A DNA stretch of 64,000 nt, taken from Octopus vulgaris (taxonomy: Eukaryota). The notes under the pieces were generated by a model. The model was not told the DNA's origin, made no database searches, and saw only the letters and a program-made list of their open reading frames with translations. The DNA lies in assembly GCA_951406725.2 (NCBI GenBank), contig OX597824.1, positions 50,096,001 through 50,160,000 on the forward strand. Direction: 5' to 3'. The position numbers were made by a program, and so were the translations under genes. Shown here one piece after another: positions 15,493 through 54,399 of the stretch (within the stretch, counting starts at the first letter, position 1; the number at the start of each line of letters is the position of its first letter).

Positions 15493-15511
15493 CATATATA
15501 TATATATATAT

Positions 15512-16455
15512 ATTATATAAAAGGGCTTAGTAAAATAAATTACTTTGCCGCATACTGAACTCATTAGAAATAGCAGCTAAAAAACTTTTTTAAAGCTATT
15601 TCTAATACTTAAAGAAAATCTCTCTCATATAGTGTTTGCTTGACTCAACTCACAGAAGTTTGGGGGTAAGGACATCAAAAAATCAAATGCAAAGGTTATT
15701 TGAGAACGTACGTTTCAAGATTAGTCAAAACGACACTTCTATCATCAGCTCAGAAACTCCTTAGTTTGGATTTGAAAACACTGAAAGTAAGAACATACCC
15801 TTTCGAAGATCTGCTCGTAACTAACAGTGCCAACAAACTCAAATAAGCAAGCGAAGAATTTCTGTTCTCCCCTTTCCACCAGCGTGGGTTAAAATCATCA
15901 AACACTATGCTTATTTCGGTAAAATCCGAAGCATTAATTAGAGGGAGATTAATTATAATTTCAACAATTGAGGGTAAAATTAATTAATTATTAATCAATT
16001 TCACCAAGTGTTCAGTATGCAAAGGGACCATTCAAGGCGAATTCAAATTATTACATTATATAAAAGGGCTTAGTAAAATAAATTACTTTGCCGCATACTG
16101 AACTCATTAGAAATAGCAGCTAAAAAAAGATAGAAGTGTCGTTTTGACTAATCTTGAAACGTACGTTCTCAAATAACCTTTGCATTTGATTTTTTGATGT
16201 CCTTACCCCCAAACTTCTGTGAGTTGAGTCAAGCAAACACTATATGAGAGAGATTTTCTTTAAGTATTAGAAATAGCTTTAAAAAAGTTTTTTAGCTGCT
16301 ATTTCTAATGAGTTCAGTATGCGGCAAAGTAATTTATTTTACTAAGCCCTTTTATATAATGTAATAATTTGAATTCGCCTTGAATGGTCCCTTTGCATAC
16401 TGAACACTTGGTGAAATTGATTAATAATTAATTAATTTTACCCTCAATTGTTGAA

Positions 16456-16457
<2 letters not shown>
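15512..16457. mobile_element. HHR mini-element, family 1: 543-nt unit, head-to-head inverted arms in (TA)n
   Basis: 15512-15585 repeats at 16055-16128 (period 543); 16129-16457 is the reverse complement of part of the unit and crosses the unit junction. Confidence 0.9.
15701..15752 (-). ncRNA. Type I hammerhead ribozyme
   Basis: tgag-CTGATGA-tagaagtgtcgttttgactaatctt-GAAAC-gtac-GTT-ctca; palindromic loop 3; stem II imperfect. Confidence 0.75.
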
Positions 16458-32607: not shown

Positions 32608-32949
32608 TATATGAAAGAATGGAGTTATTTTGTGCATTTTGATGTCGACATAAGTCCCTTGATTTTCCTGATGAGAAATCTGCATAATGTACTCCTTATT
32701 TCTTCGGAATTAGGAATATGCAGCCTTCGAAACATATGTCGAGAATAAAGGATATTTGTTAACTAGTCGTTCAACTCCATTCTTTCATATACTTATAATT
32801 TTTAAATAAACATACAAATTTCCGCACGAAGACACGTAGTCTATGTCCTAGGGACGTAGCTTCAACCGTGTTCTTTCTGATGTGAATTTGCTACCCAGGT
32901 ATCGGTTATCTTTCGAATTATCCTTAATAAGATAATTCATTCAATTACT

Positions 32950-32953: not shown

Positions 32954-33022
<69 letters not shown>

Positions 33023-33027
33023 AATAT

Positions 33028-33057
<30 letters not shown>

Positions 33058-33058
<1 letters not shown>

Positions 33059-33981
33059 GAACAAACTTACTTAGAAATGGATGCGTGCGTTCTGTCGTAT
33101 AATAACAAATTAATGAATAAAACATATGCATATATGCATACATATATGTACGTACCTAAATCTACATGTATATATACATGCATATATGGGTACAGGACAC
33201 CAAAAAAAAAACGTTGAACAGAATGAGAAACGAAAACATAAACACAAAACCAAGGAAATGGACATTTTTCTTAAACAACGAAAAAATAGAGTACAGGATA
33301 AAGAACACAAGGAAAATTCTCCTTCTTCAGTCGCCTCCGTTTCATCTACTCCGCGTTTCGAAGGTCAAGGCGAGACGCGACTTCGGTGAAACATTCCTTC
33401 CCGCAAAAAGCAAATAAATAAAATTTGAGATTTTTTTGCGGAGGGGTAAAAATGGTAACAAAAACAGGACAGTAAAGACAGTACAAAATATAAACAGTAA
33501 AAGACAGGACAAGGAGAATAACAGTAACACAGACAAGGAGAGCTGTTAAGCCAAACGAGAGAAAATTTTACGAACGCTTTTTTTTGAGAACGGCGAAGGA
33601 GGCACAAAAAAGCCGTCTACACTCGAAGGAAGCTAGGTCAGGTAGACAGTAGTTTTCTTGTCGCTGACCAGCGACGGAACAGAGGAGGAGGAGTAAGAGA
33701 AAGGGAATGGTTGCAGAGAAAACAAGAAAGAATGAAGAATGAGAGAGAGGGAGGGAGAGACAGTAAGATAGAAGAAAAGGAAGTCAGAAAGAATGAAGGC
33801 TGAGAAGGGTAGTGGGACAGAAAGGTTAAGAGTGTGCATCATTAATATTAAGAACAAGCTTACTTAGAAATGGATGTGTGCGTTCTGTCGTATAATAACA
33901 AATTAATAAATAAAACGTATGCATATATACATACATATATGTACGTACCTACATCTACATGTATATATACATGCATATATG
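33058..33981 (-). mobile_element. Non-coding PLE-like element: 793-nt period, ~125-nt direct terminal repeats, carrying the scrambled HHR motif
   Basis: ttacttagaaatggatg...catgcatatatg starts at 33067 and again at 33860; left end in (TA)n. Confidence 0.75.
33319..33379 (-). ncRNA. Candidate hammerhead ribozyme with non-canonical (reversed) strand order
   Basis: cgcGTC-tcgcctt-gac-cttc-GAAAcgcg-linker-gaggcga-CTGAAGA-a-ggag; stems CGCGU/ACGCG, UCGCCUU/GAGGCGA, GGAG/CUUC. Confidence 0.6.
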
Positions 33982-34621: not shown

Positions 34622-35219
34622 TTAGGGTAGCAAGAATATTCATCGAAAAATTCTTTTTTTTCTCGCTAGACCACTGGTAACTAAGAATTTTTCGATGAAT
34701 ATTCTTACTACCTTAAGATTTTAATTAATGATAAAATGTTTTTTGGCTAATTCTGGAAGAAAATCGGCAATATTTTTATTTAGGGCTGGTTGAGTTCCGC
34801 TTCTGTGCAGTAAATTCAAAAAATTAGAACCTATAGACACGTGGCTGATTACTGATAGCTCCATGTCTATGGATTCAGTCTTGGAAACCTACTGAGGACG
34901 CAGCGCCAGATATAGACTGAAATGATCGTATTTCAATCTGTATTTAAGTCTGCAGAAACCTTGCAGGGTCTAGGATTAAGGTAAATGTTTTTATTTTTCA
35001 ATCACTTTCTGAATTACAACAATTGGTGGTTTGGAGTTTTAACTGCTCTTTCTAGCGAGTCATATATCCTATTCTTCAGGTATCTCTTTTGTGTTTGAAC
35101 GTAAAGTGTATTCTTCTCTGAATAATATATAGTCTATTGACTAATTTTTTCTCGCTAGACTACTGGTAACTAAGAATTTTTCGATGAATATTCTTGCTAC
35201 CCTAAGATATTAATTAATG

Positions 35220-35222
<3 letters not shown>
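34622..35222 (+). mobile_element. HHR mini-element, family 2: 489-nt unit with 33-nt inverted left arm
   Basis: ctcgctagac..ctggtaactaagaatttttcgatgaatattctt at 34662 and 35151; 34622-34654 is an inverted copy; right end in (TA)n; terminal segment homologous to 37631-38590. Confidence 0.85.
34888..34974 (+). ncRNA. Type I hammerhead ribozyme
   Basis: ccta-CTGAGGA-cgcag...ctgca-GAAAC-cttgcagg-GTC-tagg; long internal hairpin in stem II. Confidence 0.82.
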
Positions 35223-35267
<45 letters not shown>

Positions 35268-35312
35268 TGAGAAAGATAGTCAAATGCAGGTATTATTCAT
35301 AAACATATAAAC

Positions 35313-35377
<65 letters not shown>

Positions 35378-37630: not shown

Positions 37631-37635
<5 letters not shown>

Positions 37636-38590
37636 TCAATATAGGGTAGCAAAAAATTCAATAGAAATTTTTTTCGCCACCAGCGGTCTAGTGAGAAAGA
37701 GAAAATAGTCAGAGACTATATATATAAATTCAACAACAATTGAGGAACGGCCTCAATAGACCATTCGACCCACTAGTAAGAGCAGCCAGGACTCAAACCG
37801 CCAAGTAGTAGTAATTCAGAAATTAAAGGAAAATTAAAAACATTTACCCTATTCATCTTTAGACAATGCATTGTTTCGACGTTTTTAATGGCAAACCAGC
37901 CTAATTAAATTAAATTAAACTTAATCAAGTCAATCTACCAAAGGCTACGTCTCATCGGTAAAGAAGCCAGGAGGGACAGATATACACGAGGCGGCAGTAT
38001 CTATGCCCCGGGAATATCTGCCCTAAAATTTTCAGACCCACCGTAATCGCGCCAAACTTATCAGCAGCAAATATTAACTGCTGATTCAATTTCAGAATTA
38101 GTCAGAAAATCATCAATTAATCAATAGAGGGTAGCAAAAAATTCAATAGAAATTCTTTCGCCACCAGCGGTCTAGTGAGAAAGAGAAAATAGTCAGAGAC
38201 TATATATATAAATTCAACAACAATTGAGGAACGGCCTCAATAGGCCATTCGGCCCACTAGAAAGAGCAGCCAGGTGGGTTTGAAAATTTTAGGGCAGATA
38301 TTCCCGGGGCATAGATACTGCCGCCTCGTGTATATCTGCCCCTCCTGGCTTCTTTACCGATGAGACGTAGCCTTTGGTAGATTGACTTGATTAAGTTTAA
38401 TTTAATTTAATTAGGCTGGTTTGCCATTAAAAACGTCGAAACAATGCATTGTCTAAAGATGAATAGGGTAAATGTTTTTAATTTTCCTTTAATTTCTGAA
38501 TTACTACTACTTGGCGGTTTGAGTCCTGGCTGCTCTTTCTAGTGGGTCGAATGGTCTATTGAGGCCGTTCCTCAATTGTTGTTGAATTTA
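37631..38590. mobile_element. HHR mini-element, family 2: 485-nt unit, head-to-head inverted arms in (TA)n
   Basis: gggtagcaaaaaattc at 37644 and 38129; 38273-38590 is the reverse complement of ~37720-38042. Confidence 0.9.
38352..38458 (+). ncRNA. Type I HHR with CCGAUGA core (mirror copy 37857-37963, minus)
   Basis: cttta-CCGATGA-gacgt...acgtc-GAAAC-aatgcatt-GTC-taaag. Confidence 0.82.
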
Positions 38591-48101: not shown

Positions 48102-48153
48102 AAATTTTCTTTATAAAATTATTTTAGCATTTTCTATCTTGACTTGTTTTTTC

Positions 48154-48200
<47 letters not shown>

Positions 48201-48204
48201 CATG

Positions 48205-48302
<98 letters not shown>

Positions 48303-48310
48303 CTATATAT

Positions 48311-49101
48311 ATCAATAATTGAGGGTAAAATTAATTAGTTATTAATCAATTTCACCAAGTAGTGTTCAGTATGTAAAAGGACCATTTAAGGCGTATTCAA
48401 AATATTATATTATATAATTAGGGCTTAGTAAAATAAATTACTTTGCCACATACTGAACTTTCTAGAAATAGCAGCCAAAAAGTTTTTTAGCCATTTCCAC
48501 TACTTTAAGAAAAATTCTCCCAGATAATGTTTACTCAAAAATAACTCACGAAGATATGGAGGTAAAACAGTAAAATATCACAAGTACAAAGATCATTTGA
48601 GAACGTCACGTTTCTAGATTAGCCGAAATAAAACACAGCATTCCTTCGTCAGCTCAACATTTCTTAATTTTCGATTTGAAAGCACTAAAAGAATGAACAT
48701 ACCCGTCCGGCGATGTATCACCTCAGACAAACACCCTCAAACTGCCAGTACTAGCAAATTCAAAATGTACAAGCGAAGATTCATGTTCTTTCCTCTACCA
48801 CCCACGTGAGTTATCTAGTAAACATGCTATAACGGTGAGAACCGTAGTAACAGAACAGGGAGAAAGGAATTATAATATCAATAATTGAGGGTAAAATTAA
48901 TTAGTTATTAATCAATTTCACCAAGTAGTGTTCAGTATGTAAAAGGACCATTTAAGGCGTATTCAAAATATCATATTATATAATTAGGGCTTAGTAAAAT
49001 AAATTACTTTGCCACATACTGAACTTTCTAGAAATAGCAGCCTTCTAGAAAGTTCAGTATTTGGCAAAGTAACTTATTTTACTAAGCCCTAATTATATAA
49101 T
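48311..49101. mobile_element. HHR mini-element, family 1 variant: 566-nt unit plus 59-nt inverted arm, in (TA)n
   Basis: atcaataattgagggtaaaatt at 48311 and 48877; 49043-49101 inverted; colinear homology with 15512-16457. Confidence 0.9.
48597..48657 (-). ncRNA. Type I hammerhead ribozyme
   Basis: ttgag-CTGACGA-aggaatgctg...cggctaatcta-GAAAC-gtgac-GTT-ctcaa; stem II imperfect. Confidence 0.72.
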
Positions 49102-50115
49102 ATGTACTATATATATATATATATATGAAACCAATGTTTATCGCCACCTAAACGTGGGCATTCTTTTAAAACACTCGATATATAAATTGCAAGCGGAGAG
49201 AGAACTCCCTACTATTTTACCTCTTGAGAAGCGAGAAGTCTTGGGAACCATGCCGATTCAACAGCCATCCAGCAGCCCTGCAGCTGGGAGTGAGAGATAC
49301 CTACTGTGTTCGGACATCTCTCTAGGAGAAGAAAAACCCTGATGTAACCTCGCGACTTTATTTGCATCCAATGATACAGATCAGTTCCACTTTTGGGCCA
49401 AATAGCAAATGCATATGCCGTTGAGAGAATGTAAGATTTCTTGGATTTCTTCACTTTACAAAGTTTCAAGTACAGGCATCCTTTGATTTAAAAAACATTA
49501 TCCTTAAAATGTAAGATGAGCTGCATACTATGGCTGGCTGTTGCCATGGTGAATTAAGGTATGCGTCAGCATGGTTTGGAAGCTATCTGAAAACCTTCTG
49601 CAAAAAGGTGCCCATCATTGTCACATATGAGCGTAAGAGTGTAGGTCTGTTGAAGGACTGAAAACCCCGCTCATGTTCAAGAAAACAGTCATGACATAAT
49701 AATGTTCGAAATCGAATTGTAGTTATCCTGTATACTACGCATGATTAACTCAGTCCTCAGTATGAAGACTATTCATACAAAAACAATATTTCAATGTAGA
49801 GTCATTTATTTTAATAATATAAAAGGCGTCCAATACTTGAACAAACATTTTAACACGTACTCCGCACAAACTCACTCACTCACTCAGACACTCACTCAGA
49901 CACTCGCTCACTCACTCACTCACTCACTCACTCACTCACTCACTCACACGTGCCCTCTCACATACACATACATACACTCACAAACACACACACTCACACA
50001 TACATACTCACATACACACACAAAGACAACAACAAATCTATTTAATAGGTGACAAAGGACAAGTAGTGTTGCATTCCTGGAGAATAATCAGTTGGTTTGG
50101 TAATTCCTCTGTGAA

Positions 50116-51741: not shown

Positions 51742-52522
51742 CACACACATATATATGCAAATACAGGCGCACGCCCACACACACAAACTCACATAGACAT
51801 ATAGACATATTCATATACACACATAACCGCACCACCCATTAAAGATTGATGGGAGAGTAACATCTCCACTCAATATGGATTCTGTTTACGGTATGTCGCC
51901 ACCTTTACAATTTATCATGCTTCAACCGGCGATATAGGATTATAAAATAACCGGCTATATAGCTTGTATAAAACAACCGGCTATACAGCGTATATAAAAT
52001 ACATGCATACATAAATACATACACACACACACACACACATGTATATATATGTATTTTTATATATGTATGCTTATATGTATGTGTGTATGTATGCATGTTT
52101 GTATGTATACATGCATATGGATATCATAGTTCATAACAGCGGAAACTATTTCTTTCACACTCTTCATTTCACATATCTATAGATAAGTGTGTGTGTGTGC
52201 GTCTGCGTGTGTGTGGTAGCTGGGTGAATGTATGTGTGAGTGTGAATGGGTGCGTGAGTACGTGTATGTCTGTACGTTGTATGCGTCTGGGTATATGCAT
52301 GTATTTGTCTATATTTCTATGTGTGCGCATGAGAGTATTTGTGTGTAAGTGTATGTATAATTATGTGCATGTTTTCGCGCGCATATGTGTCGGTGACCGT
52401 TTGAGCATGTGGCTATGTACATATATATTTATGTTTGTGAGTGCTTTTTAAGTAGTTCTTGTCTCCCTCTCTCTTTCTCTCTATAAATATATACATACAC
52501 ATATATATATAAATACATACAT

Positions 52523-52569
<47 letters not shown>

Positions 52570-52570
<1 letters not shown>

Positions 52571-53312
52571 CAATAATAATTCTCTAAAAGAGATATAGAC
52601 AGTAACTGCTCGATAACATAAGGGACTAAAGCCATCTGAATATGGCTAGGGACAGGGCAGGGTGGTGGGGGTGTTACTGTTGCATTTAGCCCCAGGCGAA
52701 CATCGACGTCACCAGAAAGGCTAGACACCGTCACGGTGTCCTTATCCTGCAAAGGGAGGTAATTCCCCGATGAAGCGGAAACCACACACGGACCATGGTT
52801 TCAAGGTGTATTGCCTATCGTCGGCGTGTGGTAGGCTTCCGCTTCCTCGACGAATTCTCACTCTGCAGGATTTTCACATATAGATTTTCAAGCAAAATAC
52901 ATTTGCTGATTTCGAAAATCTGTTCGAAAGCAATAATAATTCTCTAAAAGAGATATAGACAGTCCCTTATGTTATCGAGCAGTTACTGTCTATATCTCTT
53001 TTAGAGAATTATTATTGCTTTCGAACAGATTTTCGAAATCAGCAAATGTATTTTGCTTGAAAATCTATATGTGAAAATCCTGCAGAGTGAGAATTCGTCG
53101 AGGAAGCGGAAGCCTACCACACGCCGACGATAGGCAATACACCTTGAAACCATGGTCCGTGTGTGGTTTCCGCTTCATCGGGGAATTACCTCCCTTTGCA
53201 GGATAAGGACACCGTGACGGTGTCTAGCCTTTCTGGTGACGTCGATGTTCGCCTGGGGCTAAATGCAACAGTAACACCCCCACCACCCTGCCCTGTCCCT
53301 AGCCATATTCAG
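52570..53312. mobile_element. HHR mini-element, family 3: 360-nt unit as a near-perfect head-to-head inverted duplication
   Basis: gcaataataattctctaaaagag at 52570 and 52930; 52961-53312 is a circularly permuted reverse complement; the same 50-aa N-terminal spurious peptide appears on both strands in the ORF track. Confidence 0.92.
53103..53176 (+). ncRNA. Type I HHR with long stem I and CCGACGA core (mirror copy 52772-52845, minus)
   Basis: gaagcggaa..accacacg-CCGACGA-tagg caataca cctt-GAAAC-catg-GTC-cgtgtgtggtttccgcttc. Confidence 0.85.
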
Positions 53313-54109
53313 AACCTTGAACTTTGCTCTGCATGGACACTAGGTTTTAACGTTCTAGTTTCTACTATTTGCAGCAGTGCTTGGAAGCAAGGAGTGTAGA
53401 GTGTGGTCGTCGTTTTGACCATGACAGAGAAAGTTGTCAAGGCGATGCCTGTTTAGATGTCTACGCAAAGTTACAGAAAGTGTATGATGAGTTGTGTATG
53501 AGCCGCACACAAGTGTACGAGTCGTTCAGACGTTTCCAAGATGGTCGAAAAAATGTCAATATTGACGAACGTTTTGGGAGACCCGCAACCAGCAGAACTG
53601 AGAAAAAACATCGCAGATGTGCTGTGAGAGGAAATCGTCGAATCCTTATCCGTGAGTTATCAGAAGATTTGCAGATTAGTTATGGTTCAGTTCAATTCCA
53701 TCATCACAGGGGATTTGGGTATGAGATGCGTGTCTGCCAAGTTTGTGCTAAAACTGCTTTCAGCTGACCAAAAATACACTCAGGTTTCAGTTGCAAAAGG
53801 TCTTGATTGTGTGGAGTACGATGAAAACATTTTGAAAATTTTGCGTGGGTCTCTGAGCAGATATCGCCAAGCTTTTGGAAACATTTGTTGCAGATTGTCT
53901 GCTCAACTTTGTCATGGACAATGCGACGATCACACACTACACGCCTTCCTTCCCAGCACTGTTGTAAACAGCAGAAGTGAGTTAGAATGTTAAAACTTAG
54001 TGAGCATGCACAACAGAGTTCAAGGTGAATCTGTTTCAAGCGGCTTTACTCTGCGTGCCTCAGCTTTGTTACTATGGCAACAATCCGGATACTTATTGAT
54101 CAGAGCACG
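53313..54109 (+). mobile_element. Internally deleted mariner element with long TIRs; left end missing
   Basis: HTH remnant LQKVYDELCMSRTQVYESFRRFQDGRKNVNIDERFGRP; 53313-53357 inverted at ~53982-54026; right end ggatacttattgatcagagcacg-TA. Confidence 0.88.
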
Positions 54110-54399
54110 TATATTTGATTATGTCCATATGTTCAAGTAAGAACTTTGAATAGAGAATCTATAAAATTTTTTTTACAAATTTTCCCTGTTCCTCTGATAA
54201 ATTGCATCTGAAGACTGTGAATTAATCTGCTCTGTTCAGTTTTGGAGAACTTAAGCTTTTTCCAGGTTTCTATGGAGGTCTGTTGTTGCGTATCCAAGGG
54301 CACCTGTAATAGGTGAAAATGAAACACCTGGATACGAGAGCTGTATGTTTCTCATCATAAGGTATTAAACTCATCTGCAGTTTTTGAACAAGCATTCAC

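Follow-up and report, generated by a model that had tools for sequence, protein, structure and literature searches.

The sequence at positions 52570-53313 of the window (the whole stretch of 64,000 nucleotides analysed here) consists of one 360-nt unit written in both directions, and it raises the question of what kind of element leaves such a structure and how it entered the genome. In our view the sequence is likely to be a recently inserted retrozyme, a 360-nt repeat that codes for no protein, copied into a (TA)n tract in trans by the reverse transcriptase (RT)-endonuclease of a Penelope-like element (PLE). The features of the locus are given below; the phases of the unit are numbered along the hammerhead strand, phase 1 being position 53019.

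52482-52569, no strand: TA/CA microsatellite, the insertion target, found with TRF; it adjoins the 3' end of the left arm, and (TA)n flanks occur family-wide
52570-52963, minus strand: left arm of 394 nt (phases 327-360 and a full 360-nt unit), with the family's long 3' end; from self-comparison and locus L005
52570-52614, minus strand: 45-nt tail (phases 316-360), the difference between the long and the short 3' end; family ends lie at phase 360 or 315-317
52775-52836, minus strand: predicted type I hammerhead, left-arm copy, with the predicted cut after C52791; motif at 52824, identical to the right-arm copy
52961-52963, no strand: AGT overlap (microhomology) uniting the 5' ends of the arms and belonging to both
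52961-53313, plus strand: right arm of 353 nt (phases 303-360, then 1-295), ~20 nt short of the expected short end
53112-53173, plus strand: predicted type I hammerhead, right-arm copy; from motif search and covariation
53208-53224, plus strand: 8-bp hairpin within the right arm
53314-54111, plus strand: old relic, presumably of mariner type, that has kept its 3' terminal repeat and lost ~85 nt of its 5' end, where it is fused to the right arm; from paralogue comparison

Self-comparison places one complete unit at 52570-52929, the initial 34 nt of which recur exactly at 52930-52963, in keeping with the left arm of 360+34 nt given in the preliminary description. The right arm is an exact match to the reverse-complemented, circularised unit over 353 nt, not the 352 nt reported there, and it was correctly seen as identical to the left arm and as starting at a different phase. 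The two arms are 100% identical and oriented 5'-to-5', and the crossing of the unit junction by both of them, as well as the AGT overlap, was likewise recovered. Along the hammerhead strand, the left arm runs from phase 327 through one full unit to phase 360, where it adjoins (TA)n, and the right arm starts at phase 303 and ends at phase 295, next to the mariner-type relic. The element consists of unit sequence throughout its 744 nt, close to the ~740 nt first described as a foldback; the foldback proper takes up 679 of these, as a perfect inverted repeat (52635-52963 / 52985-53313) whose two arms of 329 bp are separated by 21 nt. The element is also richer in GC than its surroundings, as had been claimed (45.6% vs 32.8% in 1.07 kb of left flank and 40.8% in 1.09 kb of right flank). 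The fold of the right arm beats 100 of 100 shuffles (z -5.8), and the unit folded as a circle reaches -121 kcal/mol with 63% of its positions paired.

The hairpin at 53208-53224 and a GUC ending at 53157 are both present where they had been reported, and the predicted hammerhead cleavage site at the latter is corroborated by the motif and by covariation across subfamilies. The right-arm hammerhead comprises a 6-bp stem I, the core CCGACGA (U4C) at 53124, a 4-position stem II with a basal U-U, then GAAA, a stem III of 2 bp with a palindromic CAUG loop, and the GUC. Among 15 variants hand-picked to span the subfamilies, the relatedness of which inflates the counts, 92.9% of the cells pair and 15 cells are changed on both sides, with none of 500 shuffles as high; these both-side changes are confined to three hammerhead pairs, which 132 of the 500 shuffles reach. 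The 3-8 pair is C-G, U-A or U-G in all 15 variants, and U3-A8 is a described variant of PLE hammerheads (PMC4209133). In an older subfamily (L214) the core is canonical and stem II is closed by G-C. Rfam gave no match at the gathering threshold in the window; at E <=10 the only hits there were sub-threshold ones to models of generic hairpins, and neither L214 nor L001 matched a hammerhead family. Within the 62-nt motif the active fold has -2.8 kcal/mol vs -21.0 for a rival fold, and the rival rod is much stabler in the monomer. According to the passage on this position in PMC3088659, U4C lowers activity in vitro and nonetheless allows viroid infectivity. It occurs in coding PLEs of this genome too, since one of their families (L166/L167) has CCGAAGA cores; for PLE ribozymes the basis is this genome's own PLE at L166, element I2 and one passage of PMC3088659. 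The axolotl hammerhead HHR_Amex2, with the same U-U, is described as cleaving weakly, better as a dimer, and as yielding circles (PMC7229834), and for Xenopus eight of nine tested dimers are given as uncleaved (bioRxiv 10.64898/2026.07.22.740005). We would expect the cleavage of the window hammerhead to be weak or dimer-dependent.

The non-coding tandem unit, the predicted hammerhead and the self-paired fold bear out the earlier reading of the element as a retrozyme, and on its sequence features it is an animal non-LTR retrozyme, a new family member beside those described from mussel (350-390 bp), axolotl (Rtz331/Rtz353) and coral (Cervera and de la Pena 2020, PMC7229834). As in the elements treated in that paper, a short tandem unit without an ORF and with less than 50% GC (here 360 nt, within the ~170-400 nt of this class, and 46% GC, in arrays of up to 22 units) bears one type I hammerhead motif, which has a variant core in the window and a canonical one in L214 and is negative in Rfam, and the monomer is highly self-paired. 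HHR_Amex2 as presented there resembles the window motif further in its 2-bp stem III with a tetraloop and in the U-U at the base of stem II, and PLEs are present in the same genome in both cases. The differences are that circles, cleavage and expression were demonstrated for the retrozymes of PMC7229834, whereas those of the present family are putative; that the U4C of the window core is unlike the retrozymes described there; and that the two-armed (TA)n insertion is the rule in the window family, whereas the main text of that paper uses none of the terms inverted, microsatellite and cephalopod. In the literature outside subscription papers, Repbase and supplements, we found no account of the window family or of a strict pairing of a long with a short end. 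The main text of PMC13282606 does not contain the words hammerhead, retrozyme or ribozyme; its repeat library or supplements may label the family otherwise.

The window locus is an ordinary one, one of roughly a thousand copies. In the genome searched (2.8 Gb, 227 contigs), a DNA search with the unit gave at least 190 matches (40 of 1038 candidates scored), and among the matches listed six, at three other loci/contigs, are identical over 350 nt. Exact patterns of the long and of the short 3' end followed by TA match 754 and 531 times, respectively, vs 0 for the backwards-pattern control, and an internal 24-mer of the unit matches 3147 times. The identical copies elsewhere and the end matches agree with the preliminary description, which had called the element apparently young and would have abandoned its reading if no other copies or transcripts existed; copies are abundant in the genome. 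Its suggestion of an element possibly still active suits the family, which has identical copies on three other contigs, but not the window copy, which is damaged at its right end and has U4C and the U-U mismatch at the base of stem II in its hammerhead. Inspection of 90 loci (ORFs listed for L031-L090) revealed no ORF joined to the unit. Long arrays, of up to ~8 kb and at least 22 units over two arms, were observed at L051, L052, L196, L212 and L272, almost without internal differences. At L166:6100-6317, L170:100-400, L189:766-828 and L109:15-73, sequences more distantly related to the unit and its hammerhead, or only resembling them, point to a putative larger and older superfamily.

The copies follow a strict rule at their ends. 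We examined 191 distinct insertions, a non-random set of loci picked by similarity or by one exact end; the end patterns fix one end by design and leave the partner end free. Two arms are present in 137 of the 191, and of these 127 combine a long with a short end, none has two long or two short ends, and 10 have one odd end; 127 to 0 corresponds to p 6e-39 against independent ends. The first set contributes 98 two-armed insertions out of 131, all divergent (5'-to-5'), with 92 long+short pairs and six with one odd end, the window copy 52570-53313 being counted among the latter. The second set contributes 39 of 60 with two adjacent arms (35 long+short and four long+odd, one of them cut by the edge of the fetched sequence), and the other 21 of 60 are one-armed or have arms more than 140 nt apart. 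The long end lies at phase ~360 and the short end at phase ~315 (315-317), 45 nt apart and both in (TA)n, which also stands on both sides of many one-armed copies, and the 5' ends are scattered; a second arm made of PLE sequence was found at none of the one-armed loci (33 in the first set, 21 in the second). Where the arms meet without a gap, the junction has an overlap of at least 2 nt in 44 of 77 cases vs ~15% for random joins, BLAST placing the ends only roughly, and locus L047 has a 12-nt target duplication.

A two-armed layout in (TA)n with a tail on one arm is the published footprint of PLEs, an ordinary explanation that the foldback reading of the preliminary description had overlooked. 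As set out in PMC8557442 and PMC3846280, PLE insertions consist of partial tandems with an inverted, 5'-truncated copy and a 30-40 bp tail at one end, and are biased towards (TA)n. The window family has the inverted, 5'-truncated second copy joined at its 5' end, the tail at one end only and the microsatellite target. Compared with the EN+ PLEs of Neptune/Naiad type as described in PMC8557442, PMC3846280 and PMC11167929, it is alike in its partial tandems, its head-to-head inverted copy, its one-end tail, its (TA)n targets and the hammerhead in its repeat, and it differs in having no ORF and a tail of 45 nt rather than 30-40. The combination of one long and one short end is strict here (127 to 0), whereas these papers word it as "often" or "optionally". 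In the in vitro experiments reported in PMC11167929, a PLE protein nicked both strands of AT-rich DNA, and reverse transcription started at two internal RNA sites, the distance between which equals the tail; the start site showed no strand difference, and uncut RNA was used as the main substrate, two results that count against the reading preferred here.

We therefore envisage, for the 360-nt retrozyme, that a PLE enzyme would nick both strands of a TA tract, that two cDNAs would be started, one per fixed internal site, with 45 nt between the sites, and that each would be extended until the enzyme falls off. The two cDNAs would then be united via a few common bases (AGT at the window copy), and an enzyme that circuits an RNA circle more than once could account for the homogeneity of the arrays and for the arms that extend across the unit junction. 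A wider proposition, which we put forward tentatively, is that the insertions record PLE action in several respects: an asymmetric two-site complex, the rolling of a circle, A-to-I edits in every unit and occasional two-RNA hybrids. How the inverted arms and the tail of PLE insertions arise is named as unsolved in PMC8557442, and the retrozyme family links this question with that of the mobilisation of retrozymes by PLEs. A 360-nt RNA with two mapped start sites and a one-of-each rule, in a genome with intact young PLEs, would be a compact substrate for the assay described in PMC11167929. That retrozymes are non-autonomous PLE derivatives has already been proposed (Li, Clavereau, Pollet 2026, bioRxiv 10.64898/2026.07.22.740005), on the basis of co-occurrence and of similarity to PLE pseudo-LTRs (pLTRs), mainly in vertebrates, according to the parts of the preprint on this proposal, where insertion ends are not used. 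In the window family the PLE link is supported by the ends, but the unit showed no resemblance to the pLTR of a coding element in the PLE loci sampled.

The genome has intact coding PLEs, with many 781-aa frames that contain RT and GIY-YIG domains and whose zinc-finger-like linker we read as Neptune-type, following the description in PMC8557442. Like the window family, they are flanked by (TA)n and built of inverted arms, one of which bears a tail, and they contain hammerhead-like motifs with a palindromic stem III. A young intact Neptune-like PLE of this kind lies at L156:906-4587, and others at L157-L161; this type has a second long frame upstream (333-479 codons, no Pfam match above cut-off), the U3-A8 hammerhead variant and a 38-nt tail. 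A second coding family was observed at L166:5305 and L167, with the hammerhead core CCGAAGA in some copies and CUGAAGA in others. The PLE loci were the top candidates of GIY-YIG and RT searches and represent several Neptune-like families, Naiads lying outside the search target; in these 52 loci (775 TA-adjacent ends scored) there is no end sequence in common between the unit and a coding PLE. The best-scoring of the 775 ends, L166:6272-6317, was considered as the end of a partner PLE and proved to belong to a separate, diverged retrozyme. The driver PLE is proposed from the footprint, because the ends of the sampled PLE families are unlike those of the unit.

It could be argued that the unit is the detached pseudo-LTR of a coding PLE and that the insertions are 5'-truncated copies of that element, a view favoured by the anatomy, which is that of the coding PLEs, and by the relatedness of Xenopus retrozymes to pLTRs reported in bioRxiv 10.64898/2026.07.22.740005. 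Against this, the arms consist exclusively of unit repeats, to 3.9 kb and beyond, and none enters an ORF; the layout of an autonomous PLE, with an RT and GIY-YIG ORF between pseudo-LTRs, was found neither in the 744 nt of the window element, which are unit only, nor in the arms of the family, and the sampled PLE ends have no similarity to the unit. We regard this origin as very improbable. Still less credence, hardly any, is given to the possibility that the fold-back was produced artefactually, in the assembly or in long reads, or through an inverted duplication at the DNA level unconnected with retrotransposition. The 100% identity of the arms would suit it, as would the central junction, which is crossed by none of the read-derived contigs listed. 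However, the arms begin at different phases and finish at two fixed phases in 127 other or similar loci, older loci (77-95% identical to the window unit) have the same layout, and a 141-nt contig of run X1 spans the right junction, with 15 nt on the element side, under the 31-nt mark for bridging. The recurrence of the layout at 137 loci, where the break points vary and the end rule is fixed, makes an artefact unlikely.

Within the PLE-driven insertion of a retrozyme, the template may have been an RNA circle or a linear multimer, and we lean towards a ligated RNA circle that can be traversed more than once. The circular or concatemeric RNA of the preliminary description thus gains indirect support from array homogeneity and from an A>G bias, not from the junction-crossing arms, which by themselves show no circle. 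The alternative, which we hold to be rather unlikely, would keep the same PLE machinery and replace the circle with an uncut linear multimer transcribed from a small number of master arrays; in it, with the same low likelihood, the hammerhead would be weak or vestigial and the arrays would be lengthened and homogenised at the DNA level. The window-type hammerhead, with U4C, the U-U and a poor predicted fold, speaks for this alternative, as does the use of uncut RNA as the main PLE substrate in vitro reported in PMC11167929. Against it, the hammerhead pairs covary among subfamilies, and HHR_Amex2, with the same U-U, cleaves and gives circles according to PMC7229834. Of 215 arms whose 5' ends were analysed (seven complex loci excluded), 117 are longer than one unit, and 4 end at the hammerhead cut site vs 2.7 expected, with 279 crossings. 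Linear monomers cut by the ribozyme are ruled out as the template because the 5' ends are not in excess at the cut site, an outcome that suits uncut RNA and circles equally. The 5' ends at phases 181-200, in or beside the hairpin 53208-53224, number 30 vs 12.7 expected, a weak excess confounded by short arms.

The variants within arrays bear on the same choice. Arrays of up to 22 units have 2 differences in 7669 cells, a homogeneity to which assembly polishing could contribute. The multi-unit loci comprise 27 majority haplotypes, each near-uniform along the array and even over both arms, and the two arms of a locus are discordant at 23 of 2669 diagnostic sites vs 30% for random pairs. A new haplotype could fill an entire array only through a monomer-to-multimer step, which the linear transcript would need in addition. 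Also against a linear transcript, rare variants common to at least two units lean towards A>G on the sense strand (14, vs 3 T>C; single-unit variants 7 and 14, respectively) in 121 young loci, eight loci and everything below 95% identity having been excluded. This excess has a Fisher p of 0.004, or 0.03 when recurrent sites are counted once (10 vs 3), and it fits edited RNA monomers copied repeatedly; against this, sub-lineage markers of the type C>T or G>A make up many of the shared variants. At L034 and L212, neighbouring units carry variants in blocks, a pattern consistent with duplication at the DNA level and favouring the linear transcript. A locus-private variant fixed in all units was found at 0 of 35 multi-unit loci (threshold three units), and this test is therefore not counted in support of the circle. 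Two runs that we guess to be RNA hold contigs of the unit and none of the flank, a pattern that low DNA carry-over could also give. One of the runs guessed to be RNA, X8, has a single contig of the unit, 358 nt long, and none of the flank. A 360-nt cycle broken at one variant would give this length, but 202 of the 358 letters lay outside the stretch, unseen, and such contigs cannot show circles.

The right end of the window copy departs from the rule through what appears to be a deletion. The adjoining relic at 53314-54111, which gave no Pfam match, is one that we take to be of mariner type from its motifs and termini. Its paralogues (81-84% identical) have ~85 extra nucleotides at the 5' end, with a terminal repeat matching 54066-54111. 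The fused junction of arm and relic is present in run X1, possibly the source sample, and absent in run X3, since the X3 contig, with a single mismatch over 119 nt, has mariner sequence in the 69 nt before 53313; X3 has a flank variant in common with a run labelled as another species, and may represent another population or species. With regard to the presence/absence polymorphism among individuals proposed as a check in the preliminary description, X3 differs from X1 in the fused right junction, and it may still have the retrozyme further left. A contig of run X2 starts exactly at 53313, its upstream sequence being unseen. Because the paralogues and X3 keep the 5' part of the relic, we infer a deletion, during or after insertion, that probably removed ~20 nt of the right arm, the TA flank and ~85 nt of the relic.

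In two of the 191 insertions, an arm of the window family abuts, 5'-to-5', an arm that belongs to a different retrozyme family. In L043:930-2210 the long end of the window family is combined with the short end of a family present at 15509-16457 in the window, and in L200:1056-2630 its short end is combined with the long end of a family present at 37631-38588; the ends of the foreign arms were classified by eye, with single window copies for comparison. The second set of 60 insertions contains no further hybrids. They may stem from a reaction with two RNAs or from a deletion between neighbours, which two cases cannot separate. It is conceivable, as part of the wider proposition advanced above and with the same reserve, that a PLE complex occasionally takes up the RNAs of two different retrozymes and so gives hybrids that obey the long+short rule.

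The window holds other sequences of this kind. The insertion at 37631-38588 is two-armed and of retrozyme type, with a unit of ~485 nt and a hammerhead motif at 38357 (+) and 37958 (-) that has the core CCGAUGA, a long stem II and a 10-nt palindrome; older relatives lie at 33013-33384 and 34974-35365. Further hammerhead-like motifs with a palindromic stem III occur at 32668 (+), 40275 (+), 37054 (-) and 20504 (-). The third family, at 15509-16457, has a unit of ~543 nt, is two-armed in (TA)n and carries a canonical CUGAUGA motif at 15748 (-); its two ends are ~94 nt different, and a diverged copy is found at 48150-49120.
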